This document shows, piece after piece, positions 4,348 to 56,064 of a stretch of 56,064 nucleotides of DNA (position 1 is the first letter of the stretch; each line of letters begins with the position of its first letter). The DNA is from a virus (lineage: Duplodnaviria > Caudoviricetes). The notes under the pieces were generated by a model. It saw only the letters and a program-made list of their open reading frames with translations. It made no database searches and was not told where the DNA came from. Location of the stretch: the IMG/VR virus record IMGVR_UViG_3300024500_000038, positions 1 to 56,064 of that record; one strand, written 5' to 3'. The position numbers and the translations under genes were made by a program.

Positions 4348-5201
4348 TCGCTGTGACATTCGGGCATTTTCGTGGCGATAACCGCGACATAGCTGTGACA
4401 AATCTAAGTATGTACGGGGACTTCAAGGAACACTTGAAGTCCTTTCAGCCTACCGATTGGATGGTATTCACGTATCTAATTTTCCAGATGACAGCTAAGA
4501 CACCCGCTGTGGCCGTCTCTGTTGGCGAAATAGCGAAGAATTGTGGCCTGTCCGAGTCAACTGTCAGATCCACGGTTAAACGCCTCTCTACGGTCAAAAT
4601 CGGCGACCAGAGAATACTCATTGTCAAGCAGCGCACGGACTCGGATGGTAGTCCGATGCAGAACTTGTACGTGTTACTGCCCACCAATGAAGAGGTCGAA
4701 TGGTTTGAGGGTACTGTAGATTTTGGGGGTACCTCAAATTTTGAGGGAGGGGGTACCTCAAATTTTGAGGGAGGGGGTACCTCAAATTTTGAGGGACACT
4801 ATAGTAAGCCTGTTAATTCGGTAGGCTTATTAAATATAAATAAACCCCCTATAATTCCCCCAAAGCCAAAGAAGGGTGTTTCTTTACCTAAAGATGACGA
4901 TCCAGCGCTGCCTTTATTCCTGGCATGGCGGCGCACCGTGTACCCAGAACTGAACGATGAATACACATTAGCCGAGTGGAGGAAAGCTCACATAGTCCTT
5001 CGGCAAATGATTCACAAGGGTGTTACGGAGGACGACGTGCAACGTGCGACGTCAGTACTGATTCGTAAATGGAAGAACAGGGACATGGTAACAATGCATG
5101 CTCTGTGGAGTCACTGGGCTACAGCGAATACCGTTGGATCATCCGGCGTCGTTTCACAGGGAGCATTGAGTGCAATCAGAGCAGCAAAGGGTATTGACTG
5201 A
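4344..5201 (+). CDS. replication initiator (lambda O-like, winged HTH)
   Basis: HTH EIAKNCGLSESTVRSTVKRL, NLYVL, internal iterons, upstream of loader and DnaB; ATGA overlap at 4344. Confidence 0.8.
   Translation: MIAVTFGHFRGDNRDIAVTNLSMYGDFKEHLKSFQPTDWMVFTYLIFQMTAKTPAVAVSVGEIAKNCGLSESTVRSTVKRLSTVKIGDQRILIVKQRTDSDGSPMQNLYVLLPTNEEVEWFEGTVDFGGTSNFEGGGTSNFEGGGTSNFEGHYSKPVNSVGLLNINKPPIIPPKPKKGVSLPKDDDPALPLFLAWRRTVYPELNDEYTLAEWRKAHIVLRQMIHKGVTEDDVQRATSVLIRKWKNRDMVTMHALWSHWATANTVGSSGVVSQGALSAIRAAKGID
4725..4796. repeat. three perfect tandem 24-bp iterons GGGGGTACCTCAAATTTTGAGGGA (putative origin)
   Basis: Units at 4725, 4749 and 4773, each with the inverted repeat CCTCAAA-T-TTTGAGG; AT-rich tract follows at ~4828-4845. 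Confidence 0.9.
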
Positions 5202-8030: not shown

Positions 8031-8088
8031 CGATCTTTTGCTGCACAGCCTTGAATCCGGGATGTGCAGCAGACTTCTTACTATTCAT
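7918..8088 (-). CDS. 56-aa basic protein (not in ORF track)
   Basis: MNSKKSAAHPGFKAVQQKIAKKQGIPMDRAGAILASASRKAGPAAKRKNPRLNKVR; GGAGG SD; start overlaps the stop of the giant gene. Confidence 0.8.
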   Translation of the reverse strand: MNSKKSAAHPGFKAVQQKIAKKQGIPMDRAGAILASASRKAGPAAKRKNPRLNKVR

Positions 8089-14000: not shown

Positions 14001-17000
14001 GCCGCTTGGATTTCAGCCAGGTAAGCTTCTTCTCGTTGCTTAGCCTCGTCCATAGCCTTGTTCAACTTGTCTGTAAGTTCGGCTAAAGCAGCATCACTAA
14101 TTTGTGTCGCCAACTGCAAGTTGGATGATCGTTCGTTCGCGTCAGTGATAGCCTTTGTCAGAGCCTCGATAAGGTCCTGCATCGATGTAAGATCAGTGCT
14201 TGTCTGTGGACGCCCATTCTCTATTATGCGTTGTAGACTTGCGATAGCCGCCTCGTATTGTGCCTTCTGGTCTAACAGTTCCCTGCGGAGATCGTCAGCG
14301 ACTCTACGGGCTTCCTCACTGCTTGCCGCTGCCGCAGCAGCAGCTGCCTGCCCAAGTTCTGTACGAATCTTAGCCAGCTCTTCACGTAGAAGCGCCTGTT
14401 GTTCAGATGCACGACCTTGCTCCTCAGCTAACTTTTTCGTTAGTTCTTCGATGGCAAGTCTAGCTGCTTCCAGTTCTGCTGTCTTTGCTGCCTTTAATCG
14501 GTCAACCTCAATCTGCTGTCGTCGAAGTTCGCGGTTGGCTTCTTCTTGGATGCGACGTGCTTCCAATTGTTTATCGAGCATCTCACGTCGGAATTGGCGA
14601 TCACGCTCACGTTCAGCCTCGCGCTTTGCTTCAGCCTCTTCACGCTCGCGTTTACGAGCCTCTGCCTTATCGGCAAGTTCAGCTGCTCGGCGTGCCTTCT
14701 CTGCATCCTCTGCGGTGGCATCTGCAAGATGAGCTGTTACTACAAATGTTCGGTCACGAACAGCCTGGCCCGTAGCATATGCAACAGAGTACTGAATTGC
14801 TTTATTGACTGCTTCGCGACGATCTAGTGTTGACGCAGGTGTGTATACAGCATCTGGTGTACCAGTTGCGTCAGGACTAGACATAGAGTTATAGAGATTG
14901 AAACTTCCGTCCGGATTACCTCGAAGCGCATACGTCGTACGATAGTCTCCAGTAACCTCACCTTTAGGGTTGAATTCTTGCAGGCGCAGTTGCAGAGAGA
15001 CAGTACCGTTTTCGTTACGATCTATTGTTCCGTATACGTGCTTGTATCTGGTTCGGACGTTGAATGTTCGGGCTGAACTAAATTCTGTCGTAGCCTCAGT
15101 ATCTGCGACGTCAGTATCAACTGACTCACGCATCGGTAGTTCATCTCTACCAAGGATTTCTGGATCACCTTCAACAGCGTCTTCATCCGCAGTTTCACCT
15201 TCTACGCCAGTAGTATCCTCAATAATCGGTGTTTCAACTTCGGCTTCTGGTTCAGCAGTGCCGAGTTCCGGGAACATATCAGTGAAGTCTTCTGTTTCCA
15301 ACAGATTACGCAAAGCACTATTGACACGGCCCTTGGTTGCAGATGTTAGTTCAATGACATCAACATCTTCAGTAGCACGCGATTCTACTGGCGTCATTTC
15401 TGGTGTTTCTGCTGTACCTTCGCCAACTTCAGCAGATGTACGCGCAGATACTGATCCGACGCGGCCGTCACCGTCCACGTCTTCACCAATCATAGTTTCA
15501 GCTTCAGCTGGAGTAATGGGATTACCCAACTGGTCTGCGACAACCATATTGTTTTGAACAACAAAGGCAGCTTTACGTGGTTGATCAACTAGGCGGACTT
15601 TGTAACCACGGGGTGTTAGTTCTGTAATGATAGCGGTTTGCTGGCCAAACTCAGCGGTCATGACGTCTACAACATCGGCACGCTTGAACCTGCCATCTGC
15701 TGGCTCAAATCCCATAGCCTCTTCGACGTCGGCAGCAATCTCGGAACGAGCGGCTTCGATCGCCAGGTCTCTAGCCTTCTTATCGGTAATAGCCCGTGCA
15801 TTATCGAACAGGTAACTCTTAGCGGACCGAGCGCGTGATACGGCTCTATTCTGTTCTGGTGTTAGTTCTACTACGTCAGCGGTGTTCGTATCTGGGTCAT
15901 AGAACTTCCATTGCATGCGACCGACACGCTCTTGTGGTGCTAGTTCACCAAGATATGTTGGGAAGTATTCGTCACGTATGTTTCCAAGGACTTCTGGTTT
16001 TGCACCAGATGTATCCTCAATGTTGATTTGACCTTCGTTTACACGGATGTGTGTGCCGTCTGGCAAACCAACGATATACATACCCTGACGTGGGTCACCA
16101 ACTGCTTTGATTACGCGACCAGGAATTGGTTCCATACCTTCTTCAAGGTAGATATTCTGCTTGTAAACGTATCGGTCGGCGTTATCAAAGTTATCCGGAT
16201 TGAACTGCGATGGTCTTTCGTTTGGCGCAACACCTTGAGCAGCCATCGTATCGACCAGCTTTTCGGCAATCTTCTTGTTAGAGATTGCGCTAACCGGGAC
16301 AACCATGATCTTACTGCGGCCATCAGGTGTTACATCACGCACAACTACGCCGGCGTCTCTCGAGATACCAATTACGTTTCGCGTTACACCAGATCGCCTA
16401 TCACTGTAGGCAATGACTGGCTGTCGTTGGAACAGTGCAGTAATCGTCTGCAATTGTTCTGCTGCGTATTGTGAGCGACGGCCTTCCAAAGGTAACGCCA
16501 TATCTTCAAAGATAGTCGCTTTGCGATTCTTACGATCGAAGACAGCATACTCAGCACCAGCAAGTATCGGTCTACCTGCGGCGTCCACACCAGGGCTATA
16601 TCGACCACCAAGGTTCAGGCGCTGTAGTCCCTCATCACCGTAAGGCGTGATTTCTGACTCTATTGGACGAGCTGGTCTACCTAATTCACGGGACTGTCGA
16701 AGCTCTGTAAGCTTATTCAATGCATAGGCAGGATCTGTAATCTTATTCGCAAATTCAAACGACGCCTTGCCAAGTGGAGTTTCGCCACCAAGCAATGCAC
16801 CAATCGCGCCATTGAATAGAATCTCCTGCGGAGACAAACCAAAGCCACCCTTAGCTTTTGCCGCTTCACTCTGCTGGTACGATTCGAACATACCTTGCGC
16901 GGCTTCGATGGAGCGGTCACCAATGTCGCTGACAGTTGCTTGTACCTGTGTATTCTTTAGTGCTTTGGTCACACCACGACGGGATATCTGACGTGCGGCC

Positions 17001-17986
17001 TCACGGATACCGACGCCAGGGATTTTTAGGCTAGGCGCAAAGAATGTAAGGTCTCCGGCAAGTGAACCAGCTTGTGACATCAGTGGGTAATCTGCTGCTA
17101 ATTGACCTCGATAGTCTTCCTTTGCTTTAAGAGCAGCTGACCCTAACATTAGACCAAAAGCTTTGTCATTGATAGCAGAGTTAATGTCTGTACCAATCGT
17201 GCCGCCGCCAGCAGCTCCAAGTAAACCAGCCATAAGGTACGCGGCACCCTTGTATTTCTTAGGTGCTAACGCAGCTGCTAATCCACCGGCTCCACGGAAG
17301 CCCAGTGTGCCTCCAAAGATGGTTCCTGGCATAGATGCTATGCGTTCTTGGTAAGGTGTACCAAACGCTTCGCCAGCCGCGATGAGAGGGTTGTTACTTT
17401 GTTGGTAGGCCAGACTTGGGTCACCACTTTGTCTTCCTTCAACAAAAGCCTGAATGGGTTTGTAAATACCAGAGATCACGCCAACGCCTGCGTCTGGAAG
17501 TTGCTGGAAGCCCGTCTGTAAATCCCGGAATGTATATGGCTGTTCATTCCATCGCTGCACGTCGTCGCGCGTATACTTTAACTTATCAAGATAAGCTTCT
17601 TCGTCCTCGCGAGTCTTCTGTATCTGTTGTCCAAAGTCTTCTTTGGCAGACTGCCTTAGTCCATAGATAGCTTCTGGTGATAGGTCTGGACGATACTCGT
17701 TATCAGGCGTAAAGTACTGTCGCTTATCTTGGTCATTGACAAGTTCAATAGCACGACTTGCTTTGAACTTAGCTAATGTAACTTTGTCCTCGCGTGAAAC
17801 TAAGCCTTCCTTGAACAGCCTGTCTACATTGCGGGTAAATGATTTGGAAAATAAAACGTCATCGTATTGACTACCGTTAGCAATATACTCTCGCGCACCT
17901 GCTTTAGTAGTTAAGTCCGGGGAATCCCGCAGAGCCTTAATAGTCGGAGCAATTGATTGATATTGTCTAAGTTGACGTTCATTCAT
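8081..17986 (-). CDS. giant (3301 aa) internal virion / ejection protein, polyvalent-like
   Basis: Last of three large genes after the tail genes; HExxH motif, degenerate ART-like segment, coiled coil, D/G linker; nearly Cys-free. Confidence 0.75.
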   Translation of the reverse strand: MNERQLRQYQSIAPTIKALRDSPDLTTKAGAREYIANGSQYDDVLFSKSFTRNVDRLFKEGLVSREDKVTLAKFKASRAIELVNDQDKRQYFTPDNEYRPDLSPEAIYGLRQSAKEDFGQQIQKTREDEEAYLDKLKYTRDDVQRWNEQPYTFRDLQTGFQQLPDAGVGVISGIYKPIQAFVEGRQSGDPSLAYQQSNNPLIAAGEAFGTPYQERIASMPGTIFGGTLGFRGAGGLAAALAPKKYKGAAYLMAGLLGAAGGGTIGTDINSAINDKAFGLMLGSAALKAKEDYRGQLAADYPLMSQAGSLAGDLTFFAPSLKIPGVGIREAARQISRRGVTKALKNTQVQATVSDIGDRSIEAAQGMFESYQQSEAAKAKGGFGLSPQEILFNGAIGALLGGETPLGKASFEFANKITDPAYALNKLTELRQSRELGRPARPIESEITPYGDEGLQRLNLGGRYSPGVDAAGRPILAGAEYAVFDRKNRKATIFEDMALPLEGRRSQYAAEQLQTITALFQRQPVIAYSDRRSGVTRNVIGISRDAGVVVRDVTPDGRSKIMVVPVSAISNKKIAEKLVDTMAAQGVAPNERPSQFNPDNFDNADRYVYKQNIYLEEGMEPIPGRVIKAVGDPRQGMYIVGLPDGTHIRVNEGQINIEDTSGAKPEVLGNIRDEYFPTYLGELAPQERVGRMQWKFYDPDTNTADVVELTPEQNRAVSRARSAKSYLFDNARAITDKKARDLAIEAARSEIAADVEEAMGFEPADGRFKRADVVDVMTAEFGQQTAIITELTPRGYKVRLVDQPRKAAFVVQNNMVVADQLGNPITPAEAETMIGEDVDGDGRVGSVSARTSAEVGEGTAETPEMTPVESRATEDVDVIELTSATKGRVNSALRNLLETEDFTDMFPELGTAEPEAEVETPIIEDTTGVEGETADEDAVEGDPEILGRDELPMRESVDTDVADTEATTEFSSARTFNVRTRYKHVYGTIDRNENGTVSLQLRLQEFNPKGEVTGDYRTTYALRGNPDGSFNLYNSMSSPDATGTPDAVYTPASTLDRREAVNKAIQYSVAYATGQAVRDRTFVVTAHLADATAEDAEKARRAAELADKAEARKREREEAEAKREAERERDRQFRREMLDKQLEARRIQEEANRELRRQQIEVDRLKAAKTAELEAARLAIEELTKKLAEEQGRASEQQALLREELAKIRTELGQAAAAAAAASSEEARRVADDLRRELLDQKAQYEAAIASLQRIIENGRPQTSTDLTSMQDLIEALTKAITDANERSSNLQLATQISDAALAELTDKLNKAMDEAKQREEAYLAEIQAARAELERLKRELEAARADAEDAGRSRGRSRRRIRERPNIDEAPSDVVNNRVIEKVLLDIGGDVVEADATQVANRRQLQTVLVEQFNFSNDGAYFFTGIVDNFARAWAMRQVEGSGRVALDTHAALMTSGRPGEAVVEVRDDEGNLLDEKVYREMFNTDPDVLKSVAAYMRVFYKERLASFAFINDVTKLDGEATGFIFKRAKQTGMSSNVIVGLAARDQLTGIHEVVHALIRGMDSASRRKLVNQLSRAGINEVTDIDNLPTHIEEQLVAMMVADIQNGMAPRRVEEVLQSDGTRVRKQVQPAQALNTVYQGTRRYLNSVIQTIASKRPIRRGPDGTYTVRWRAPYTGAKIYAGTGLYINHNGSKRWVTAKKATTVDQAEFDRYPESRTRVGFVSVTDGRSVFEIPISSVIEYGGLTNGMNANLMDTLSSFIGSYYDENMKWLEAVEPQMFEGFTEPGDGTADESGTGGPDDGGDGDGSGDDFGDGTGDDTGDEDGTGDDEDGTGDDDTGDVWMPRGRIAYNTYESDKPLTKRDYDFPIFLIKDINMSDATIEAYSDLAKSLGIPRENVFVFSNPPRLKDFGLIDPSQQIFSISGSNTAPIGIGVDFRRQIIEKHPSFGPGINVHTLGRIIRSQETKDAYTNFATQYADVNGEMFDSVLKMRIAQPSASTRVYDPLLSTANVENLAYIMRTSIDGLVRDVTPEMLEGVQPITVIRRMYRNEGFSGLVQLASFLHNSQYLRNGINHPVVHKFLSNMSSVVKTDGTVRETLLNMIKDPEVFNSVPEYANDNAFNVRSTDVTRDQLVALYNGSLTDKHITDFLEGLGDNKRRVEKFREPIKDMLQTFRELSEFGDYTSAHQASIGYLRNLVTVGEVASALSLHTTIGKMAVTLSAQLVPNGDYNKVHRAYMQRLVASGIEANKAVANIWTLNTKEGRGSDFAYAPRGMEGDSFTYQRVKGSSDVPKGTVIVSRNGDAKLRKEDGTIVPLPVSNTVKALSVNAGLVLRDTKMPINRYVLTAAHLMEWGGEENVNTVIPMSQFMFDSVDTFDDAAATDTFIQQPDILAQTKRGMVDLAKADRITIGNNGKVTAVRDYRGNSSHAFRLMTKVMGMSPNQAAAHYARTESPEFKQWSGGHPLVESVANADIRPDVTIGDVPPAYLSSIRRYMAGQDALAIMEDMASSAVVTDDDMDSLSIALDDFYRGEKTPKTIKRIVDFAADGNTKNASVQMALKLDMKQTKFDVARTVLKDATAYKEAALRPRTGKPLVTIGFVPDTPTSIWLRSAQGYILPSGVDRLTGQNKKMKYVRMDNPQVIDLNGGGMDAGTVSKLLAKHKNRDGIVFLNVKHSVGGDNALQNIAVPRNSHAALNVASWTKKDTSVKVTRTAEPLTVMYERVDSTDDMAYDATPAPMPIRVDYSDMRGPSMPEKFNPVKKPEKYQVLGNIVDQFNDITRLVLSADFAFTTLQAGLILLTNPAVGMKALIAGFRGFFAPNMQLEFNGKTYGTRKFGREVFHKIGNELRAMDVYEEAREAQLPLTMFTIDERLQDALDLELYNLRRVNPNATIDDCKTTLMDIDELGTNDEWFLKGRWTQHIPGQGMFERYNAIVHDMVLLLQFDHMKKAIMAHGYIPGSEKYKTALRDSARILAVSVGDIKYSTNTETDAKASRIFKVLFTAPRWLLSRALIDPVINNVLSSSYFGFMRNVMGQDNPVFDLYKGDKAATAIGMKMWARMAGAWMFLMFFSQLIADKLPEGTEVETNTDRNFGRIRVGDFRIDPPAGVFDHYRLGFRLAQAAWMITPSEQKKAKEAGTTVLRDTFDDLHREFTYKASPLYNFISGAFFTGRTPIGEPMFGESESFKYVYDKFVKPRLIEINGSYQPWMDDVRFSNAVVERMPTAVATILDTMSATDKYEGNTSAYTIASQLLNSFGLKTEIKPQAAIKERKQETNLYTADQTPNIIDLLKQGKPGKAFTGGTYE
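12470..12640 (-). repeat. Asp/Gly-rich low-complexity linker (GDDTGDEDGT-like repeats)
   Basis: Degenerate tandem repeats inside the giant ORF. Confidence 0.8.
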
Positions 17987-38761: not shown

Positions 38762-38904
38762 CAGATGTAGTGATCCTTAGTGCGCTGGTATTCAACATGA
38801 ACTTCTTGGCGCTTACGAATTGTATTCAACTCACGCCAAGTAAGTCCAGTAAAAATAGCCGTAATTAACATCAATATACTTTGGATGATATCAAACAGCG
38901 TCAT
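38761..38904 (-). CDS. 47-aa membrane peptide between TerL and portal (not in ORF track)
   Basis: MTLFDIIQSILMLITAIFTGLTWRELNTIRKRQEVHVEYQRTKDHYI; ATGA/TGATG overlaps, GAGGA SD. Confidence 0.7.
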   Translation of the reverse strand: MTLFDIIQSILMLITAIFTGLTWRELNTIRKRQEVHVEYQRTKDHYI

Positions 38905-40622
38905 ATGTACTGGTCCTCGTTATTGTCTTGCATCCACACTGGCTTCCACGGAGTCTTTCCCTGAGTCTCCGGACATGTCACTGGGTATTCACGCCACATA
39001 ACACCGTAACGACATGAGTCTAGTGCGTGGTCAGATTTGGTACCACTGTCGAGGTCTTCTGGATCTTTCGGGTCCGCCATAGCAGCAGTTAATTCACGTA
39101 TCAAATTAGGGCATGCTCTACGTACAATTCTAAACCTGGGTTGATGCTGGCCATCCTTGACGCGCACGGATGCTAACCATTCCTTAAGTCGCCGCCAACC
39201 AGCTTTACGATCTTTAACCGCAGCAACAGCTGGAAGTCCACGTCGCCACCAAACCTCAACAGGATATTCACCGATACGTTGTTCGTGATTCTTCGGAGGG
39301 AATGTGTTTGCCCAGTCAAAAGCAATAGCCTCGAGTTTTGTCAGCCAAGGCCCATCGGGTTTGTCTTTATTGACAGGGGCTGCATACCCGCGTTCTTTCA
39401 GTAACTGAAGCGTATCTTCTGCTTGTTTAGAACTGACACGGCCGGCTTCGTATATCTCACCGATTACGTAAATGTCTTCATTCTCATCCGACGCGTACAA
39501 TAGCGTTGCTGCCGGCGCCCCAGTACCAAAGTCATGTGATGCCCAAACACGCCACCATGGTTGCACTTGAACATGATCGATTACATGCCACGGTTTCCCA
39601 GTCGTATCGTACTCTTGGAACTCAGGGAAGAACCGACCACCGACGCCGACTTCATGTTGACACTCACGTAGGAATGAGATGATGCCATAGTCGTCGATCT
39701 CTCTTTGGCACACTTCAATACTTTTGTGAGACCAAGTATTTGTGCCACCAGTAATCCGGTATCCGGTTCGACCATCCTCGCGCTCGAAAGGTTCGTAGGT
39801 AAGTCCTTTGATCGCAGGCACAATAGGTGACTGCACGCGATATTGAAGCATGTCTAGTTCACCAGACAACACCTGTGCCATAACACTATTGGCATGGATT
39901 TTGTTCTGCACAAATACGATTGCGCAGTCCGTACTTTTAGCTGGCAAGATAGTCTGAGTTATCGTAGCAATCTTCTTATCGACACGATTAACAGAGTCAT
40001 CAAGTTCATCAATGTCGTCAAGAATGATGAAATCAGGACGCAGGTGATCGAGCTTGACACCGCGAGCGCCAGTATCCAACCCAAACGCCAACACGTTAAA
40101 TCCGTTAGCGGTCCGAAGTTTCGAAGCGTTCCATCCCTTTGAAAAACCATATTTATTAAGCGCCCTTTCAATCCCACAACGCTCCATTGTGTGTCCAATA
40201 TCCGATACGTGACGGTCGGCAGCCTCCTGTGTAGAACAGACGTACAAGAGAAATCGTCTGGTGCCTTTTACTGCGATGCGAGCAGCAATATGCTCCATGG
40301 TGGTGGACTTACCACCACCACGAAACCAGCACTCGATCAATGCTGGCGGAGCGACCCCAGGCTCTATTGACTCAGCCCATTCCCACGCGCGCTTGTGATG
40401 CTCACCAAGTGACGACGACATAGCATGCGGTGCATATGTTCTCAACCATGTGTTGTAATCCAATTTAGATCCATCTATTGCGAATGCTCGCCCACTGTCG
40501 TAATCACCAGTCTTAATGACATCAGATATCTGCGCGTCTAACGCTTCCAGTAGTGCTACTGATAGCGGTTTATCACTGCGCGTAAATTGCTTAAACTCCT
40601 TAGGTACTTTCTGGTATGCCAT
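38901..40622 (-). CDS. terL: terminase large subunit
   Basis: Walker A FRGGGKST, Walker B IILDDID, nuclease HDFG and DHALDSCRY. Confidence 0.93.
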   Translation of the reverse strand: MAYQKVPKEFKQFTRSDKPLSVALLEALDAQISDVIKTGDYDSGRAFAIDGSKLDYNTWLRTYAPHAMSSSLGEHHKRAWEWAESIEPGVAPPALIECWFRGGGKSTTMEHIAARIAVKGTRRFLLYVCSTQEAADRHVSDIGHTMERCGIERALNKYGFSKGWNASKLRTANGFNVLAFGLDTGARGVKLDHLRPDFIILDDIDELDDSVNRVDKKIATITQTILPAKSTDCAIVFVQNKIHANSVMAQVLSGELDMLQYRVQSPIVPAIKGLTYEPFEREDGRTGYRITGGTNTWSHKSIEVCQREIDDYGIISFLRECQHEVGVGGRFFPEFQEYDTTGKPWHVIDHVQVQPWWRVWASHDFGTGAPAATLLYASDENEDIYVIGEIYEAGRVSSKQAEDTLQLLKERGYAAPVNKDKPDGPWLTKLEAIAFDWANTFPPKNHEQRIGEYPVEVWWRRGLPAVAAVKDRKAGWRRLKEWLASVRVKDGQHQPRFRIVRRACPNLIRELTAAMADPKDPEDLDSGTKSDHALDSCRYGVMWREYPVTCPETQGKTPWKPVWMQDNNEDQYI

Positions 40623-45064: not shown

Positions 45065-45523
45065 ATGGATGAAACAATTAAGGTCACATTTTGGCCTATG
45101 GATAACATGCAACCAACGCTGCCAACTAAAGCGACTAATGGTGCTGCTGCGTACGATCTTTATGCATGTGTAGAAAAACCAGTGCCGATTCAACCAGGGA
45201 AACGTGTGTTGATCGAAACTGGTTGGAAGTTAAAGATGCCTGTGACGATGGCTGCTTATGTCATGCCACGTAGCGGATTAGCATGGAAAAACGGCGTAAC
45301 TGTGCTGAACGCACCAGGTTTAATTGATAGTGATTACCGTGGTTCCATCAAAGTGTTATTAATCAATCATGGCGACGAACCATTCTTCGTATTGCCAAAC
45401 ATGCGCATAGCGCAGCTGATGTTTGTTCCCTCTGCAAATACCGAATTGGTAGTGATCGAAACAGGATCTCTATTTGATGATACGCAACGTGGCGCCGGCG
45501 GGTTTGGGAGTACTGGTGTATGA
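45065..45523 (+). CDS. dut: trimeric dUTPase
   Basis: AAYDL, PRSGLA, GLIDSDYRG, RIAQL, RGAGGFGSTG motifs. Confidence 0.97.
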   Translation: MDETIKVTFWPMDNMQPTLPTKATNGAAAYDLYACVEKPVPIQPGKRVLIETGWKLKMPVTMAAYVMPRSGLAWKNGVTVLNAPGLIDSDYRGSIKVLLINHGDEPFFVLPNMRIAQLMFVPSANTELVVIETGSLFDDTQRGAGGFGSTGV

Positions 45524-46140
45524 GGCAGCGAGCGCGATTAATTTGGATTACTGAAAATGCAGAGAAGCACATTGCTTACTGCGCGCGCGTGAGTAACCCA
45601 AAGAACCAGGAAAACGACGAGTTTGGCAAATTGCTAAAGTATTGTAAAAAGCATGGTCACTGGTCAGTATTTGAGATGGCTAGTGCATGCTTTGAACTTA
45701 AAACCACAGTAGCAATTGCTCAGCAGTTAGTACGACACAAGAGTTTTTCTTTTCAAGTGTTCTCTCAACGTTACAGCCCTGTGTCAGAGAAACCTGATCC
45801 TATTCGATTACGCCTAAAACATCCGACCAACCGTCAATCATCCATTGATGTAAGTGATACTGGCATTCTGCATGAACTCGAGGCCCTAGCTGATGAGTCT
45901 GTAGCTCTTGCCTATGATACGTACGACAAGATGATTGCAGGCGGTGTGGCACCAGAAACAGCACGTAACGTATTGCCTATGTGTACACCTACTACACTGT
46001 ATATGGTTGGCACGTTGCGTAGCTGGATCCATTACCTCGAGACTCGCCTTGCTGAAGGGACACAGGGCGAACATCAAGAACTGGCTAAACTTATTCACGC
46101 AGTTCTACGGAATCGATGTCCCACGATATGGAGTGAATAA
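45520..46140 (+). CDS. thyX: FAD-dependent thymidylate synthase
   Basis: GHWSVFE, QLVRHKSFSFQVFSQRY, PETARNVLP. Confidence 0.96.
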   Translation: MRQRARLIWITENAEKHIAYCARVSNPKNQENDEFGKLLKYCKKHGHWSVFEMASACFELKTTVAIAQQLVRHKSFSFQVFSQRYSPVSEKPDPIRLRLKHPTNRQSSIDVSDTGILHELEALADESVALAYDTYDKMIAGGVAPETARNVLPMCTPTTLYMVGTLRSWIHYLETRLAEGTQGEHQELAKLIHAVLRNRCPTIWSE

Positions 46141-51444: not shown

Positions 51445-51996
51445 CTACGCGACTTCATTACCCCATACGTCCCAGCCAGGGTACGGTCTACGCGCGAACA
51501 ACTCGATCTTACGCATGCCCGGATACAACTGATCTATACGCTCATGCACAGCATCAGGCTTCCTGCTATGCTCCATTCGCGGCGCCATAACTACCTGTCT
51601 GACGCTCTCGTCAGACAGCTTCAAAGGCCTACCAGACTTGCAAGGGCTACCAACCAACACAAGCTCCGTCGTAGGCTTTACAACGCTAGGACGGACGCCC
51701 TGCGCGCCCACAGGCGTACCATCCTGCTTCGTCTTCACCCACACAAAGCCAACCCCCCTATACGCTAAGCCCCAGCCTCGCAATAAGTCCAGCGCAGCGT
51801 CCAGACGCGGACCAGTAGCCCACATAAACACCACGCTGCGCGAATGCAACAGCTGCTGGACAGGCAACGCCAACAGATCAGCGTCGCTCATCGTTGGGTA
51901 GAACTTCGCGGCGGCGCCCCACTTATCCTGGCTACCGCTATACGACCACGGGGGGTCACACAACACTACGTCATACTGAACGGAAGGGAAATCCAT
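51445..51996 (-). CDS. MT-A70-family N6-adenine methyltransferase
   Basis: DPPW, FMWAT, FVWVKT, EHSRKPD, IELFARR, GWDVWGNE. Confidence 0.93.
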   Translation of the reverse strand: MDFPSVQYDVVLCDPPWSYSGSQDKWGAAAKFYPTMSDADLLALPVQQLLHSRSVVFMWATGPRLDAALDLLRGWGLAYRGVGFVWVKTKQDGTPVGAQGVRPSVVKPTTELVLVGSPCKSGRPLKLSDESVRQVVMAPRMEHSRKPDAVHERIDQLYPGMRKIELFARRPYPGWDVWGNEVA

Positions 51997-52140
51997 ATAC
52001 ACCTCGGTACGTTATAACATGGCTTCTACGGCGGGAGAAAGTCAATTTTGAGGAGATGTTCCGTAGGCGTGGGGATCGTAAGAAAAAAATAATAAGGGGG
52101 CGGGGGCTTGCCATACCCCCCTGCCACACACGGTGTGTGA

Positions 52141-52156
52141 GGGAGGGAGGGGAGGG
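52141..52156 (+). other. canonical G-quadruplex-forming motif
   Basis: GGG-A-GGG-A-GGGG-A-GGG. Confidence 0.6.
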
Positions 52157-52183
52157 AAGGCACGGCGTCGCGTGCGTAGGGCG

Positions 52184-52327
52184 GCCCGCGGTAGCGGGCT
52201 GCTTCTCTTGGAGGGGGAGGCTTCCCCCGAACGGAAGCCATGCGGACGCATGGCCGCAGCTCCGCGCGGATGCGCGGGGCTGTAGCTCGCGCGGTAGCGC
52301 GATCTATTCCCAGCCGCGGATGCGGCT
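52184..52327 (+). repeat. cluster 1 of five short hairpins with GC-GG(TA/AT/AC)-GC cores
   Basis: Hairpins at 52184-52199, 52237-52254, 52262-52277, 52287-52302, 52312-52327. Confidence 0.85.
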
Positions 52328-52447
52328 TGTTTGCGTTCCTGTTCAAAAGGCGGCGGCAGCCGACTTGCGAACAGGAGCATCCATCCCCCCAGCAAGTATG
52401 CGATACTGTCCCTGTTGGTGGTTGGAACACTCTGAAAGGAAACTAGT

Positions 52448-52828
52448 ATGGAAAAAGATAGAATGTTTGCTATTTGCCGTGCGGCGAATACCTACTTCAA
52501 GAATATCGGTCACATCGACTGGGCGACAGACCGACAGTGCAAGTCATGGAATGTGGACTATTGGCGCATAACGCAGTCCGACAATGATTTTGCTGAGCCT
52601 ACCGCGTACGTTGTCGAATTCGACCTTGCAGTCTTCACCGATTGTGAAGGCGTAGAAAGTACTTGTGAAGGTACTTGCGACATGGGCGAAAGTGAACAAT
52701 TCCGCATCCATGTAGAATCCGGTCACGACGCGGAATGTTTGATGAAATACGCGCTGGCCGACCCAGACTGCTGGATTATGTCCATCAGGTCGGAACCTGA
52801 TAGCGTGCGAAAGTGGACGACTAGATAG
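52448..52828 (+). CDS. hypothetical early protein
   Basis: AAGGA SD; acidic, 126 aa. Confidence 0.7.
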   Translation: MEKDRMFAICRAANTYFKNIGHIDWATDRQCKSWNVDYWRITQSDNDFAEPTAYVVEFDLAVFTDCEGVESTCEGTCDMGESEQFRIHVESGHDAECLMKYALADPDCWIMSIRSEPDSVRKWTTR

Positions 52829-52837
52829 TTTAGACTG

Positions 52838-52859
52838 CCTGCCCGGGCAACCGGGCAGG
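52838..52859 (+). repeat. hairpin CCTGCCCGG-gcaa-CCGGGCAGG (copy 1 of 3)
   Basis: Related copies at 53179-53198 and 53281-53298. Confidence 0.8.
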
Positions 52860-52880
52860 TTTGAAGGAAAGGAAAGTAGA

Positions 52881-53168
52881 ATGAAACTCAAAACAATTGC
52901 AGGATTAGACGGGTACGAATTTGCTGGTGCTATCAGCAAGGCGACAGATAACGCGGAAATTGCCGAAGCGGCATATCAGCGTGCTAGAAATGCCAAACAT
53001 AACGCCAATTATCAAATTGAATGTCCGACAGTCTTTATCAGCGAAGCGGCCGCGGATTGGGATACTGTAATTTCATTGTCTGATATTCGCGCATTGGTAG
53101 CAAGCGTTGAAATTATCGCCGCAGAAAACGGTATCTTGCTGCCGCAGAATTGGCAGGTAATCTATTGA
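52881..53168 (+). CDS. hypothetical early protein
   Basis: AAGGAAAGGA SD; 95 aa. Confidence 0.7.
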   Translation: MKLKTIAGLDGYEFAGAISKATDNAEIAEAAYQRARNAKHNANYQIECPTVFISEAAADWDTVISLSDIRALVASVEIIAAENGILLPQNWQVIY

Positions 53169-53272
53169 TGCGGCGGAATAGCCCGGGCAACCGGGCTAGA
53201 CTTCGCGAGTTTATAGGTTTTGTTCTAATATTCGCGCTCGTAGTATTGGCCAGTGGCCTAAATAACAATTGA
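53168..53272 (+). CDS. 34-aa hydrophobic peptide (not in ORF track)
   Basis: MRRNSPGNRARLREFIGFVLIFALVVLASGLNNN; TGATG coupling; ends just before a terminator. Confidence 0.5.
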   Translation: MRRNSPGNRARLREFIGFVLIFALVVLASGLNNN

Positions 53273-53280
53273 AACTTTAC

Positions 53281-53304
53281 AGCCCGGGCGACCGGGCTTT
53301 TTTT
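53281..53304 (+). terminator. intrinsic terminator
   Basis: AGCCCGG-gcga-CCGGGCT followed by a T-run. Confidence 0.85.
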
Positions 53305-53503
53305 CCGGCCGGCCATTGAAGCCCAGCAGGTATGCGAGGGCTTCAATGGTGAGAGTAAAAGACAGTGTCACAAAGTGACGGCCTGATTATTTGTAGATAA
53401 TAGAATCAATATTAGACTCCACAAAAATAGTAATAGTAACCACGCGCTCCACTATATAGATCCATATACACATACACACATCGTTCTCTCAACCCTTTCA
53501 GTG

Positions 53504-53853
53504 GCGCGTAGCGCTGCGGATGCAGCGGTACGCAGGTCGCGTCCTTCCTCCCAGCTTTCTTCTACACAGGGCGTAGGTGGCGCGTGTGCGTCGCGGTAGC
53601 GTCCACATGCAGTGGGCGGTTGTGCTTTGCGAAGCGTAGGCGGTGCCTGGGATCAGGTATAGCCGTAGCGCAGCAGCTTCTCAATTCCCTCGCCGGGCAG
53701 TCGCCGGGCAACACATACACGCAGGTAAGCGGGTGCCTCGCCGGGCCGCGCGGGGCGCCGCGGTAGCGGCGTCCTGCGGCTGCGCGGAGCGCTGCGGATG
53801 CAGCGGTCTGCACCCCGCGGTAGCGGGGTTAGCACATAGCTGCGCGGATGCGC
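53504..53853 (+). repeat. cluster 2 of eight short hairpins with GGTA/GGAT/GTA/GGA loops
   Basis: 53504-14, 53512-27, 53592-601, 53756-71, 53782-92, 53790-805, 53812-29, 53842-53; 20-bp direct repeat AGCGCTGCGGATGCAGCGGT at 53510 and 53788. Confidence 0.85.
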
Positions 53854-54288
53854 GGGTATGTATTCGGGGGCCTCACAATTTGCTGTCGCTGTGCTATCCC
53901 CCTTGATGCGTTACACAAAGCGTGGAGTAGGGAAAAGGATCGCGAAGCGCACATACTTCTTCTCGGCAGCAGTGCGCCCACGCTCGCCTACCTGATTGCG
54001 TACTGTTCGTAGTGGGGGCAGATCGTATAGACACAAGCCTAAGCGTGGAAGCACGTCAGCTGCCGGGAAAAATTTTTTGGCCTTTCTGGGGGGAGTCTGG
54101 CCAGTTGTCGTACTGCACTAGGTCGCGCGCAATTGTGGAGGGCGCGCGCTTGGGCTGGCCGTTGGGGTTGTTCGGGCTGTCGATCGTGTCGCGCTAGGTG
54201 GTGCGGGTATGTGGCAATTTCGCTGTTGGCTACGTTCGCGCAACCTTGTTGCATTCTTTCGCGAAGCTCCGCGCGTTTTACACTCCGT

Positions 54289-54318
54289 TTGTCCGATTGC
54301 GTCCACTTGTCGTATACT
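54289..54318 (+). promoter_or_regulatory. putative promoter TTGTCC-N18-TATACT
   Basis: Upstream of the operon starting at 54363. Confidence 0.45.
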
Positions 54319-54362
54319 GTGCTGTGCCTGCGGCGTTGCAGGCCTGAAGGGTAATAGATCCA

Positions 54363-54674
54363 ATGTTTGATTATCTTACGCGCGCGGAAGTTACGCGGCT
54401 GGCTGTCCGGCTGGCGTGGTACGCGCTCTGCTTGCTTGGTTGTTTGTTTGCCGTTGGGTTGTGTTGTGCGTCCATTCTGGGGGCGTTTGATGTACCGGGC
54501 GTTATTCCATCGGATCGCATTAAATACGCGCGCGTTGCGTTGTTGGTGTTGTCTGGCATGGCGTCCATGGGGGCGTGGTGGTCAATCGATGACGCGCTCC
54601 GCGGCGCGGCGTTTCTGTCGTTTGGCCGTGGTTTGTCCCTGCGTGCGCGGGGTGTAAAGGGTGCAGGTAATTAG
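54363..54674 (+). CDS. two-TM membrane protein
   Basis: Two hydrophobic segments; GAAGG SD. Confidence 0.6.
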   Translation: MFDYLTRAEVTRLAVRLAWYALCLLGCLFAVGLCCASILGAFDVPGVIPSDRIKYARVALLVLSGMASMGAWWSIDDALRGAAFLSFGRGLSLRARGVKGAGN

Positions 54675-54675
54675 A

Positions 54676-55239
54676 ATGAGTGAACATGACATTGATAAAG
54701 TGCGCGCGATAATTAAGGCGTCGTCGGTCTTGGCGTCTGGTATAGAGTGCGCGCTATTGGCGGCGGGTTGCCATCGCGCTTATGCAAAACAAATAAGCTT
54801 TGATGTCGTATTTGAGTGGGCGCGCCTTAGCGGATCGGATCCATACCGCGCTCCGCGTGCTAGTGTGGGATCTGTGGCCGCTATGGTGGCGGGGTATTAC
54901 CGGCTGGCGGTGTGCTGGGATTATCCCGATGATGTCGCGGCAGGTGTGACGGCGCAAAAGCTCTGCGATACGGTCGCGGCTGTGTCTGCGCTTGATGGGC
55001 GGTGGTCGTTGGGTATCACATCGCCTCCTGTGCGCATTGTGCCTGTTGGCGTGTGGCGTTCGATGTCTGCTGATGGGGTCGCGCGCTTATTGGTTGCTGT
55101 ATCGCATGGTGTCCGAAGTCAAGGGGTGGATAATTTGACGCGGACACATCGTGATACCGGTTTTGCTCTGGTGTCTCTTGATGGGGAATTGCCGCTGTCG
55201 GCATATCTCGATCATGTCGCAGAGAATAAAGGGGAATAG
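54676..55239 (+). CDS. hypothetical protein
   Basis: ATG two nt after upstream stop. Confidence 0.6.
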   Translation: MSEHDIDKVRAIIKASSVLASGIECALLAAGCHRAYAKQISFDVVFEWARLSGSDPYRAPRASVGSVAAMVAGYYRLAVCWDYPDDVAAGVTAQKLCDTVAAVSALDGRWSLGITSPPVRIVPVGVWRSMSADGVARLLVAVSHGVRSQGVDNLTRTHRDTGFALVSLDGELPLSAYLDHVAENKGE

Positions 55240-55243
55240 TGTT

Positions 55244-55543
55244 ATGGGATTGGATTTTGAGGGCGCGTTGTTCGCGTGGTTAGGTTATGATTCCGACGCG
55301 GTGAAAAACGTCGTGTATGACATTGTGAAGGATCCAGACACGGGCGAATATGCCGATTCATACTTTAGTTGGGCTGGTTGCGATTGTTGCAACCTTGACG
55401 GGGCTACGCGTGGCGGGTCTGTCTATGACGTCAACATTATTGCATTCGGCGCAGGGTCTGAGATCATCGGCCAGACTCTGGCGCAGGTCTGCGGGGATTG
55501 CTTGTACGGTCTGGAGTATGGGGAGTGGCCAGATAATGAGTAG
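55244..55543 (+). CDS. Cys-containing hypothetical protein (possible Zn-binding)
   Basis: FSWAGCDCC...VCGDC; AGGGGA SD before ATG 55244. Confidence 0.65.
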   Translation: MGLDFEGALFAWLGYDSDAVKNVVYDIVKDPDTGEYADSYFSWAGCDCCNLDGATRGGSVYDVNIIAFGAGSEIIGQTLAQVCGDCLYGLEYGEWPDNE

Positions 55544-56064
55544 ACGCGAATTACCGGTTTTCACCGATTCGGTGATACCTAAAAGCGGGATAAGTTCCAA
55601 CGGTAAACTGGGCGGCTGTGGCGCTACCTATCGCGCGGTTGGTTGCGGCGTCGCGTCTGGTACCTGTCCGGCTACTTGTTCCTATCTTCCAGAGTCCGCA
55701 GGCGGTTTGCCTGCGGCGCTTTGGTCGGCGCGTCTGGTAGCGGGGGCGGCAGGTTTTCCGGCCGTGCAGGCGGCCGCGCTAGAATGGGCGGCGGATCTGG
55801 CCGCAGGGCGTGCCAAGCTTGATAGGTGTTACGTCTTGGGGGCGCCTGCGGAATTCTCCGCGCGGCGCGCGCCGGGGTTGGATTCGTCCACGGGTTTGAT
55901 TCCGGGCGGGCTTGATGTGCGTTTGCACGTTAGCGGGGATTTCCTCCGGGCAGATAGGCGGTTTGATGCGGCGCGTCTTACCCGTTGTATTGATTGGGAA
56001 TATGTCGATCGCGTTTGCGAATTTGCCGCTATGCATCGCGGCCGCTGTTGGGTTTATACTCAAG
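55536..56064 (+). CDS. GP88-like phage protein, truncated by window end (not in ORF track)
   Basis: Open frame to the end: SSNGKLG, TCPATC, CY, VRLHVSGDF, WVYT. Confidence 0.7.
   Translation, partial: MSRRELPVFTDSVIPKSGISSNGKLGGCGATYRAVGCGVASGTCPATCSYLPESAGGLPAALWSARLVAGAAGFPAVQAAALEWAADLAAGRAKLDRCYVLGAPAEFSARRAPGLDSSTGLIPGGLDVRLHVSGDFLRADRRFDAARLTRCIDWEYVDRVCEFAAMHRGRCWVYTQ

Follow-up and report, generated by a model that had tools for sequence, protein, structure and literature searches.

Phased one-strand arrays of DNA-type mini-hairpins in the control region of an uncultured freshwater phage

Small hairpins that all point the same way, with constant loops and variable stems, raise the question of what selects them, on which strand, and whether as DNA or as RNA. 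We addressed this question for the virus record IMGVR_UViG_3300024500_000038, whose 56,064 bases constitute the window of this study. The initial annotation had reported about 13 co-oriented mini-hairpins in two non-coding clusters at positions 52184-53853, and every hairpin that it listed is indeed present on the + strand. Counting as one class those hairpins whose stem is closed by C:G and whose loop reads GNA, GNNA or GNAB, we found 13 perfect hairpins with stems of 4-7 bp on the + strand of 52184-53853 and none on the - strand, which bears out the proposed strand bias. This number is far above that obtained in 1000 dinucleotide-preserving shuffles of 52100-53899, both for stems of at least 4 bp (13 observed, against a mean of 0.54 and a maximum of 5) and for stems of at least 6 bp (9 observed, against a mean of 0.03 and a maximum of 1). 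Over the whole record, class hairpins with stems of at least 6 bp occur ten times on the + strand, nine of them inside 52184-53829, and never on the - strand, while 13 of the 26 + strand cases with stems of at least 4 bp fall in 52000-54000.

Along the + strand, cluster 1 opens with hairpin 1, GCCCGC-GGTA-GCGGGC (52184-52199), and continues with hairpin 2, GCCATGC-GGAC-GCATGGC (52237-52254), hairpin 3, CCGCGC-GGAT-GCGCGG (52262-52277), hairpin 4, TCGCGC-GGTA-GCGCGA (52287-52302), and hairpin 5, AGCCGC-GGAT-GCGGCT (52312-52327), which is followed by a T-rich tract. The starts of hairpins 2 to 5 are spaced by exactly 25 nt. Since Tandem Repeats Finder does not call these four hairpins as a repeat, their phasing does not stem from a recent duplication. 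A sixth phased hairpin of the + strand, 1b, GGGGGA-GGCT-TCCCCC (52213-52228), has a loop outside the GNA/GNNA/GNAB class, and CGGC-GGCA-GCCG (52351-52362, + strand) is present in addition to the examples given initially. Cluster 2, on the same strand, comprises GCGC-GTA-GCGC (53504-53514) overlapping with CGCTGC-GGAT-GCAGCG (53512-53527) in the segment 53504-53527; CGCCGC-GGTA-GCGGCG (53756-53771); GCGC-GGA-GCGC (53782-53792) overlapping with a further CGCTGC-GGAT-GCAGCG (53790-53805) in the segment 53782-53805; ACCCCGC-GGTA-GCGGGGT (53812-53829); and (CT)GCGC-GGAT-GCGC(GG) (53840-53855, core 53842-53853), again with a T-rich tract behind it. A weak 3-bp hairpin, CGC-GGTA-GCG (53592-53601, + strand), lies inside a block that is conserved with the relative G001.

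The apexes, taken together with their closing pairs, belong to loop classes that are stable in DNA, namely GCGNAGC, GCGNNAGC, d(cGNNAg) and d(cGNABg), as had been suggested at the outset. Nakano et al. 2002 reportedly described d(cGNNAg) and d(cGNABg) as stable hairpin loop classes. Seven of the 13 apexes of the window read GCGNAGC or GCGNNAGC, and the other six GCGNABGC. In ten related control regions, the loops were GGTA (17), GGAT (16), GGA (7), GGAC (3), GAAT (2) and GAA (2), with GTAT, GCAT, GTTA, GTAG and GAAC seen once each, and none of these 52 class loops was GNRA. Loop swaps among relatives, namely three GGAT loops of the window that are GGTA in G001, and GGAC replaced by GTAT, all stay within d(cGNNAg) and d(cGNABg). 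By comparison, the two small genes of these regions are followed by hairpins with CCCGG/CCGGG stems, and the loops there are without exception GCAA, GCGA or GAAA; these hairpins were read as terminators by eye, the terminator scan having scored only the one at 53281-53298. According to PMC13037366, GCGNAGC and GCGNNAGC constitute a mini-hairpin DNA motif that SSB binds poorly, and r(GCGAAAGC) melts at 39 C as compared to 76.5 C for the DNA form.

One-strand arrays are also found in nine related uncultured phage contigs. Of 119 perfect hairpins with stems of at least 5 bp in the ten related control regions, 52 belong to the class on the + strand, as opposed to 2 on the - strand. The claim that the outer stems differ but stay paired is upheld by a 4-genome alignment, in which pairing is kept in 98.3% of 177 cells and both sides have changed in 10 of 46 pairs; none of 500 shuffles reached the observed covariation, and slid controls paired at 32-46%. 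Such compensatory changes indicate that the hairpins are selected for their structure. Two pairs of hairpin 1 have changed on both sides, its stems in relatives being GCGCGC/GTGCGC, GCTCGC/GCGAGC and GGCCGC/GCGGCC; the same holds for two pairs of hairpin 1b, which reads GGGCAA-GGCT-TTGCCC in G001. The loop of hairpin 2 is GTAT, GGAT or GGTA in relatives. In hairpin 3 a C:G pair is T:A in G001, and the L254 version is CTTCGC-GAAT-GCGAAG; in hairpin 4, three pairs have changed on both sides in L254 (CGACGC-GGAT-GCGTCG). Hairpin 5 is identical in G001 and L243 and absent in L254. Within cluster 2, the hairpins at 53756-53771 and 53812-53829 are unchanged in G001. The overlapping pair at 53504-53527 shows GGTA instead of GGAT and an outer C:G pair turned into T.G; the counterpart of 53790-53805 is CGTCGC-GGTA-GCGGCG, in which both sides of one pair have changed and another pair is T.G; and the hairpin at 53840-53855 has A:T for G:C and a GGTA loop.

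Between the window and G001, ten of ten mini-hairpins stay paired, with four double and three one-sided changes. Together with two one-sided changes in 4-bp hairpins, the three in these ten mini-hairpins make five, all of which read as G.T on the + strand and would be A.C on the - strand. The G006-like relatives have GCGAGC-GGA-GCGAGC, paired via tandem G.A, in place of a Watson-Crick stem, GCTCGC-GGA-GCGAGC. Tandem G.A mismatches form stable sheared pairs. Cluster 1 is 95% identical to G001, as compared to about 79% for most of the genome. The more distant relatives G003-G005 contain no such arrays, and the arrays are confined to one sub-lineage. The strand bias could in part have been inherited through duplication rather than imposed by a reader. 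A metagenome scan with an 18-mer from a G-rich element at the array border yielded 12 stretches, among which L243, L244, L250 and L254 are true relatives with enough flank; L246, L247, L252 and L253 are chance matches, and L245, L248, L249 and L251 do not extend far enough towards the array. INPHARED held no DNA match for 51900-54400. A pattern scan of IMG/VR for triple GCGGWHGC returned at least 117 stretches, nearly all of them without hairpins. Among the IMG/VR matches listed is L085, an unrelated high-GC contig with CGCGC-GGAT-GCGCG hairpins near gene starts.

The clusters had been placed near a probable genome end. This placement is not supported: they sit in the spacer between the divergent leftward and rightward early gene blocks of an uncultured freshwater podovirus-like phage, and the end of the contig is an assembly break. 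The record is linear and about 90% complete, and its right end cuts a gene. A circular genome was considered and rejected, because the ORF that seemingly runs from the end into the start is a truncated gene (residues 1-167 of a 290-aa homologue). The portal protein is only 22-26% identical to those of known phages. At the left border of the array lies a G-rich hairpin element (52083-52125, - strand), whose 18-mer is identical in 10 related contigs and which is probably a leftward sigma-70-type promoter, judging from its -35 ATGGCA and A/T-rich -10; a promoter scan gave a match at the homologous site in L233 and reported no site at 52083-52125 itself. The idea that this element is a - strand terminator was discarded, since its G-run pairs with an upstream C-rich tract in the fold of the - sense RNA. 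A sigma-70-like site precedes the leftward genes, whose start lies 180 nt away from cluster 1. A G-quadruplex-type motif, GGGAGGGAGGGGAGGGAAGG (52141-52160), is located on the + strand like the hairpins, and similar runs occur at the same place in aligned relatives. The right border of cluster 1 is formed by an element of about 100 nt (52330-52430, + strand) that is nearly invariant in 4 genomes and contains a 9-bp hairpin (52336-52377) and the box GCAAGTATGCG (52392-52402). A second box, GCAGGTATGCG, lies in the loop of a 12-bp hairpin (53313-53349, + strand) whose arms differ between the window and G001, both versions folding by eye; it is followed by an A/T-rich stretch (53360-53480) and then by cluster 2. 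Before the rightward block, whose first gene starts at 54363, the promoter scan placed a sigma-70-like promoter, TTGTCC-18-TATACT (54289-54318, + strand); the G006 homologue, TTCACA-18-TATAAT, matches at 11 of 12 positions. Three exact 24-bp iterons are found at 4725-4796, within an initiator-like gene, and the arrays were therefore rejected as the main replication origin, though they may house a secondary one.

Hairpins of this kind are known to serve N4 virion RNA polymerase, and an N4-type reader had been considered for them from the beginning. This expectation was not borne out: PHROGs, Pfam, PDB sequence profiles and profile-profile comparison detected no T7/N4-like RNA polymerase. The obvious candidate by size, a 3301-aa ORF, matched no PHROGs and no Pfam family, gave only coiled-coil matches and no polymerase in PDB sequence and profile searches, and has a middle part without protein match among known phages. 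In hhalign, a 15-sequence family alignment of this ORF, cut into ten overlapping windows, reached at most 3.8% probability against 8 Schitoviridae polymerase domains, for which leave-one-out controls gave 99.9-100%. PF00940 had no match in the six frames of the record, a result of little weight as there was none in its 14 control genomes either. Longer homologues of the ORF carry C5-methylase, MerR and AAA domains, and the ESM Atlas gave weak pointers (scores of 0.77-0.82) to polyvalent-protein domains, so that the protein looks like a polyvalent injected protein. The ORF scans recognised no primase gene, HTH regulators are encoded nearby, and sigma-70-like promoters are present. Since neither an RNA polymerase nor a primase was found among these ORFs, any protein that reads the hairpins would need to be of host origin or lack an annotation. 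Among 48 anchored hairpins, no sequence recurred at a fixed distance from the hairpin that could represent a start-site motif.

The explanation that we favour, tentatively and at less than an even chance, is that the + strand hairpins act as DNA and, when folded, form SSB-resistant landmarks in an underwound control region. Negative supercoils collect between divergent transcription units, as described by the twin-domain model. Gyrase, divergent transcription or transcription crossing the spacer may underwind or open it, whereupon the inverted repeats would extrude. The + strand arms, capped by DNA-stabilising loops that are poor substrates for SSB, would stay folded while the complementary arms melt, and the region would be held open, with identical hairpin apexes displayed in a phased row. 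Such apexes could serve as landmarks to a host enzyme or an unannotated phage protein that initiates RNA or primer synthesis or loads replication proteins, a role for which the same motif has precedents at the early promoters of N4, the primase origin of G4/St-1/alpha3 and the ssiA of RSF1010. We infer DNA as the folded species, its extrusion and its landmark function from several features: the loops follow a DNA-stability rule and are never GNRA, while the neighbouring terminator-like hairpins carry GNRA; the stable loop is always on the + strand, with the G-quadruplex-type motif on the same strand and the whole positioned between divergent blocks; covariation keeps the stems, one-sided changes giving G.T on the + strand; and G006-like relatives keep one stem through tandem G.A pairs. 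However, the iteron origin is 8 kb away, so that a second start site is not evidently needed, no start-site motif is visible near the hairpins, and G003-G005 do without arrays. Moreover, RNA-library contigs over the arrays mean that RNA containing the hairpins or their complement exists, a hairpin with a T-run behind the array in 2 of 4 G006-like contigs resembles the end of an RNA gene, and the one-sided changes fit RNA at least as well as DNA, because DNA stems suffer more from G.T than RNA stems do from G.U.

The main rival of the folded-DNA explanation is a stable, highly structured + sense RNA: the arrays would be transcribed rightward into a leader or a non-coding RNA, with apexes that serve as protein-binding sites or simply shield the RNA. 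We regard this as possible but doubtful. RNA-library contigs cover cluster 1 in three of four runs (X19, X20 and X21) and cluster 2 likewise in three of four, the lack of any contig over either cluster in run X22 carrying no weight, and in X20 a separate 293-nt contig (52085-52377) has its right end at the foot of the 52336-52377 hairpin. These four runs are riverine samples from 2018-2019 that may represent one campaign, and their contigs give no levels; they are also strand-blind, and DNA carry-over is possible in such libraries. All one-sided stem changes are compatible with G.U in the + sense, which folds with z = -5.8 against shuffles, but the - sense folds equally well (z = -6.9). The hairpin and T-run behind the array on the + strand, seen in G006 and L233 out of four aligned G006-like contigs, would suit an RNA gene; upstream of cluster 1, however, neither scans nor reading by eye revealed a convincing + strand promoter, and Rfam 15 gave no match at E <= 1 on either strand of 51900-54500. 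The loops themselves argue against RNA, as they are never GNRA, whereas the adjoining terminator-like hairpins always are, and as many of them are triloops. Triloops are poor in RNA. Furthermore, a single sequence-specific binder would have to accept GGUA, GGAU, GGAC, GUAU, GGA, GAA and GUA alike.

The remaining alternatives have less in their favour. The idea of N4-type early promoters, with a polymerase injected along with the DNA that recognises the hairpin on the template strand and transcribes the 44-kb - strand block leftward from there, appears very improbable to us. The apex is the same as that of N4 P2 (GC-GGA-GC on the template strand), G006-type relatives use GGA and GAA triloops on 4-7 bp stems, the 3301-aa ORF is similar in size to the N4 polymerase, and LUZ7 sets a precedent with nine early start sites, of which two are tandemly arranged at a distance of 33 nt (PMC9163698). 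Besides the failure of the PHROG, Pfam, PDB and hhalign searches, the domains of the homologues and the weak polyvalent-protein signal, what argues against such promoters is that sigma-70-like promoters and HTH regulators are present, that no -17 to +1 flank is conserved, that most loops of the window have 4 nt and not 3, and that cluster 2 would fire antisense into two small + strand genes. A role as double-stranded DNA without strand-specific reading, be it as palindromic operators for a dimeric regulator or as supercoil-absorbing cruciforms, would suit the location between divergent promoter-like sites, the phasing of about 25 bp and the HTH proteins encoded nearby. Yet the arms vary around a fixed asymmetric centre, which is the opposite of an operator, stems are fully replaced between relatives with pairing kept, the stable loop is strand-fixed (52 versus 2), and the one-sided changes favour the + strand; we therefore judge this role improbable. 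Equally small, in our estimation, is the chance that the hairpins are terminators or insulators, or selfish or neutral palindromic repeats of the REP or MITE type. They are GC-rich, a T-rich tract follows the last hairpin of each cluster, and they are confined to one sub-lineage, but a T-rich tail is present at only 3 of 13 hairpins (numbers 1, 5 and 14), and the hairpins read by eye as real terminators carry other loops. The class hairpins with stems of at least 6 bp are almost confined to this region, 9 of 10 lying inside 52184-53829; position and phase are kept while compensatory change replaces the stems, and the 95% identity of cluster 1 to G001, compared with about 79% for most of the genome, also speaks against these possibilities. 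Two further ideas, a mimic of CRISPR repeats and type III antitoxin repeats, were dismissed, as either loops or stems are not constant.

If the folded-DNA explanation is correct, hairpin-DNA signalling would extend beyond N4 and imply a reader outside the N4 type; if the arrays act as RNA, they would represent a new phage RNA with unusual loop rules. To our knowledge, GCGNAGC-type hairpins are the only well-documented DNA secondary structure that serves as a start signal, and the known cases, namely N4 promoters, G4-type origins and ssiA, are single sites. Here the motif recurs 5-8 times per phased array; compensatory evolution has maintained it in at least 10 uncultured freshwater phage contigs, and the window genome has no detectable N4-type polymerase. 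Our search of the open-access literature found no description of such arrays. In its strongest form, the proposal would be a second, independent case of hairpin-DNA signalling in a double-stranded DNA phage lineage that lacks an N4-type polymerase, with phased, SSB-resistant arrays on one strand whose reader would be a host enzyme or belong to a new family of phage proteins, and whose effect would be the initiation of RNA or primer synthesis or the loading of replication proteins; as a whole, we consider this rather unlikely.

Several known systems resemble the arrays in part. Like the PeSL cassettes of T4-type phages, they are rows of small hairpins in early non-coding regions. Each PeSL cassette has its own promoter ahead of the hairpins, which are near-identical to one another; here, in contrast, the stems all differ, the apex alone is fixed and the loops follow DNA-stability classes. 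The CsrA/RsmA-sequestering RNAs CsrB and RsmY/Z likewise have many GGA-loop hairpins, whereas here GGAT changes to GGTA between close relatives. A CsrA sponge was dismissed, as GGA is not kept and 6 of the 13 window loops lack it (GGTA in four, GTA in one and GGCA in one). With the early promoters of N4 and other Schitoviridae, the arrays share a small GC-rich hairpin with the apex GC-GGA/GAA-GC, a free lower stem and a position in a podovirus early control region; a conserved top and a free lower stem are the defining features of the N4 P2 hairpin according to PMC4496689 and PMC13037366. The N4 hairpins are used strand-specifically and the present arrays are one-stranded, and LUZ7 also has tandem copies. 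Unlike those phages, this one has no detectable N4-type polymerase, and it carries 13-15 copies per genome as opposed to 3-9. The N4 type has a 5-7 bp stem with conserved C:G and G:C pairs at the top, a free lower stem and a 3-nt purine loop (GGA or GAA). The top and the free lower stem recur in the window, where only 2 of the 13 loops have 3 nt (GTA and GGA); the loops of the G006-type relatives are mostly GGA or GAA. At N4 promoters, a conserved sequence connects the hairpin to a start site 11-14 nt away, ahead of early genes for which the hairpin strand is the template; the 48 anchored hairpins show no conserved flank, and the hairpins here do not stand directly before genes of the predicted strand. 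The complementary-strand origins of G4, St-1 and alpha3 and the ssiA of RSF1010 differ in that they belong to genomes or plasmids with a single-stranded stage and have one or two hairpins per site, as compared to arrays of 5-8 in a double-stranded DNA phage for which no phage primase was found and whose iteron origin lies elsewhere. Nevertheless, they contain the same mini-hairpin DNA motifs: according to PMC13037366, hairpins of the G4 and ssiA type resist SSB and mark the start site on one strand, GCGAAAGC and GCGTTAGC being found at the G4/St-1/alpha3 phage origins, and GCGTTAGC is also present in the relative G006.

All of the hairpins named in the initial annotation, which had claimed about 13 co-oriented mini-hairpins with fixed loops and variable stems in two clusters, were found on the + strand by a scan of the whole record and by reading of positions 51500-56064. 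Perfect hairpins were counted if their stem was closed by C:G and their loop was GNA, GNNA or GNAB. By this rule, the + strand of 52184-53853 contains 13 hairpins of the class, their stems measuring 4-7 bp, and the - strand contains none. This is far above the numbers in 1000 dinucleotide-preserving shuffles of 52100-53899, in which stems of at least 4 bp had a mean of 0.54 (maximum 5) and stems of at least 6 bp a mean of 0.03 (maximum 1). Over the 56,064-base record, stems of at least 6 bp occur ten times on the + strand, nine of them in 52184-53853, and never on the - strand. The core GCGGWHGC is present 18 times, and the 11 copies within 52188-53851 are all on the + strand. The hairpin arrays are far beyond chance, and the observation is confirmed. 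The six hairpins of cluster 1 are phased (+ strand; starts at 52184, 52213, 52237, 52262, 52287 and 52312), the last four starts being spaced by exactly 25 nt. Tandem Repeats Finder called no repeat at this cluster, because the likeness is limited to the apexes.

INPHARED contained no close relative of the window. In IMG/VR there is a large family: 113 portal relatives were found, 80 loci were retained, and six long contigs (G001-G006) were fetched. G001, with a DNA identity to the window of about 79% over most of its length (91% and 81% in two control-region segments), has both clusters, at 95% (cluster 1) and 87% (cluster 2) identity. G006 (portal identity 76%) has a single compact array that matches the window in place and strand, its loops being GAA, GGA, GCAT and GTTA. 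Arrays of this type are absent from the more distant G003-G005 (portal identity 62-67%), and G002 has a fragment only, at its contig end. Extra control regions were retrieved with a conserved G-rich 18-mer from the left border of the array, yielding L233, L234 and L235 from IMG/VR and L243, L254, L250 and L244 from metagenomes; of the other metagenome matches, four were by chance and four were too short toward the array. Among 119 perfect hairpins in ten control regions (stem of at least 5 bp, loop of 3-4 nt), 52 + strand and 2 - strand hairpins belong to the class. An unrelated high-GC phage in IMG/VR (L085) carries, on the reverse strand, CGCGC-GGAT-GCGCG hairpins and a set of four CACGC-GGAT-GCGTG units repeated in tandem every 24 nt (about 1065-1150, 2801-2843 and 3159-3172). 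They are near gene starts, on the strand that serves those genes as template, and may be an independent instance of the same apex.

The initial annotation had noted that the outer stems differ but stay paired, and in relatives the pairing is indeed kept through compensatory changes. In a comparison of the window with G001, the ten mini-hairpins of 6-7 bp are all fully paired; four pairs are altered on both sides, and three changes are one-sided and produce G.T. Pairing was 14-53% when the partner was slid, in rows that include one mis-specified helix, and the shuffle control for this pair of genomes comprised two rows only and is little informative. For cluster 1, seven helices were compared among the window, G001, L243 and L254. 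Here, 98.3% of 177 cells are paired and 10 of 46 pairs (12 cells) are altered on both sides, a number reached by 0 of 500 shuffles, while slid controls gave 32-46% pairing and 0-1 double changes. The stems of L254 are nearly all replaced, with position, phase and apex kept. Loop changes between the window and its relatives stay in class (GGAC to GTAT, and three cases of GGAT to GGTA). Among the G006-type arrays, one genome has a Watson-Crick stem (GCTCGC-GGA-GCGAGC) where three others have GCGAGC-GGA-GCGAGC, with tandem G.A pairing. All five readable one-sided stem changes yield G.T on the + strand and would read as A.C on its complement. Selection on pairing in one strand maintains the hairpins, whose loops obey DNA-stability rules. 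That they act as double-stranded DNA, be it as operators or as cruciforms, is improbable.

The window comprises the whole record, a linear contig with an estimated completeness of 90%. An ORF spanning from the contig end to its start, and so closing a circle, was ruled out, as the last gene, a truncated DUF7227 homologue aligned to residues 1-167 of 290, has no match at the record start. The clusters lie inside a 2.4-kb spacer separating two divergent gene blocks, since these run leftward from 52002 and rightward from 54363. The rightward block (+ strand; 54363 to the end and 149 to about 8030) encodes an Erf-like annealing protein, a weak Gam-like match, an initiator-like HTH protein and a DnaB-like helicase. 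Within the gene of the HTH protein (4314-5201), three exact 24-bp copies of GGGGGTACCTCAAATTTTGAGGGA (4725-4796), each with a small inverted repeat, look like a lambda-type iteron origin inside an initiator gene. The leftward block (- strand; 52002 down to 8081) encodes a methyltransferase, HTH proteins, an endonuclease, an endolysin-like protein, an SSB, a P22-type portal, a capsid protein and a 3301-aa ORF, with a dUTPase gene and a thymidylate synthase gene (45065-46140, + strand) interposed. Its 573-aa ORF (38901-40622), without a Pfam match and strongly kept in relatives, is taken for the large terminase.

The left border of the array is a conserved G-rich element that aligns across six genomes and reads, on the - strand, ATGGCA, a GC-rich spacer and then TATAAT, GATAAT, TATTAT or TAATAT. 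We infer that it is a leftward promoter; a promoter scan called one here in L233 and reported none at the window's site. It is directly adjoined by a G3-tract motif on the hairpin strand (GGGAGGGAGGGGAGGG, 52141-52160) that is predicted to be able to form a quadruplex, and similar runs occupy the same place in the aligned relatives and in most array-bearing relatives. Sigma-70-like sites are located upstream of the rightward block. Because the putative leftward promoter and these sites flank the arrays, the arrays would be upstream of both divergent promoter sets. According to the twin-domain model, negative supercoils accumulate upstream of divergent promoters.

Several other elements were observed in these control regions. 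Next to cluster 1, about 100 nt (52330-52430) are near-invariant in four genomes whose adjoining hairpin stems diverged. Within this element are a 9-bp hairpin (52336-52377) and the box GCAAGTATGCG (52392-52402); the element allows alternative pairings (TTCCTGTTC / GAACAGGAG / CCTGTT) and could be a regulatory leader or protein site ahead of gene 52448. A second copy of the box, GCAGGTATGCG, lies in the loop of a 12-bp hairpin (53313-53349; about 1000-1040 in the G001 stretch). The window and G001 have different arms for this hairpin, which fold in both. The distant relative G003 has a similar box, GCAGGTATGGG, four times on the - strand (34372, 35382, 36116 and 37194), each within a repeat of about 150 nt ahead of small early genes. 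The non-coding stretch 54017-54349, upstream of gene 54363, is a separate contig in one RNA library (X20), which begins about 11 nt past TACTGT (54001-54006), ends past a hairpin (54329-54347) and could represent a small RNA or a long leader. On the + strand, the hexamer TACTGT or its counterpart TATACT followed by GT is found at 52405-52410, 54001-54006 and 54313-54318, 30-50 nt upstream of a gene or RNA contig start; it is a possible -10 element for rightward promoters of the phage. In G006-type relatives (L233-L235; L231, 3400-3500), an inverted repeat GCAGGT-NNN-ACCTGC between TATACT and the first leftward gene looks like an operator.

Which molecule folds was judged mainly from the loops. 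The title of Nakano et al. 2002 names the classes d(cGNNAg) and d(cGNABg). Seven of the 13 apexes in the window are GCGNAGC or GCGNNAGC, the two forms of mini-hairpin DNA in a 2026 review (PMC13037366), and six are GCGNABGC. The review states that such DNA binds SSB poorly, that r(GCGAAAGC), the RNA form, has a melting temperature of 39 C, and that natural sites are known in the primase origin of G4, St-1 and alpha3, in RSF1010 ssiA and in the N4 promoter (GCGGAGC). None of 52 array loops is of the GNRA type. Two small genes within the spacer (52448-52828 and 52881-53168, + strand) are followed by three hairpins with CCCGG/CCGGG stems, which are read as terminators, although only the third (53281-53298, with a T-run) received a terminator-like score; in the same regions, the loops of such hairpins are all GCAA, GCGA or GAAA. 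There are two hairpin populations in one region with two loop rules, and the array obeys the DNA rule. That the array hairpins are terminators themselves, or neutral repeats, is just as little to be expected as a double-stranded role. Mainly because of this difference in loop rules, we tentatively prefer, at less than even confidence, the view that the hairpins are folded + strand DNA: in an underwound control region they would fold as DNA and serve as SSB-resistant landmarks. A structured + sense RNA is a possible but doubtful alternative. It would agree with riverine metatranscriptome contigs covering cluster 1 in three of four runs, which do not give strand or level and may reflect DNA carry-over; in X20 this coverage is a separate 293-nt contig (52085-52377) that ends at the foot of the conserved hairpin. 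RNA folding gave good structures for both strands (z = -5.8 and -6.9), and Rfam had no match to the array region.

N4-type promoters would be a very unlikely explanation, as the defining enzyme was not found in the window by family, PDB and profile searches. The 3301-aa ORF (8081-17986, - strand), similar in size to the N4 polymerase, has no PHROG or Pfam family, and gave only coiled-coil matches in the PDB, as a single sequence and as a seven-sequence profile. PF00940 had no match in six frames of the record, a search that was also negative in all its controls. The family of the giant ORF, aligned as 15 sequences and divided into ten overlapping windows, was compared with a profile of eight Schitoviridae polymerase domains; the highest probability was 3.8%, against 99.9-100% for three leave-one-out controls. 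Near residue 1552 of the ORF is an HExxH motif; the protein also has a long coiled coil and an acidic linker, and its homologues in relatives measure 3265-4841 aa. Injected polyvalent proteins are a familiar concept. Some of the longer homologues have C5-methylase, MerR and AAA domains, and the ESM Atlas gave weak pointers (scores 0.77-0.82) to polyvalent-protein domains; the ORF is therefore probably an injected polyvalent protein and not a polymerase. Moreover, no sequence is kept at a fixed distance from the hairpins, and transcription from cluster 2, if arranged as in N4, would enter the two small genes in the antisense direction.

As far as our literature search reaches, the use of mini-hairpin DNA in phased arrays by a phage lacking an N4-type polymerase has not been described, whereas such DNA is already known as a kind of signal. 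The N4 promoter is a stable hairpin on the template strand, reading 5'-GC GGA GC-3', with a conserved top and a free lower stem (PMC4496689), and LUZ7 has nine early start sites, two of them tandem (PMC9163698). The arrays closely resemble the N4 promoter hairpin, most of all in the G006-type relatives.
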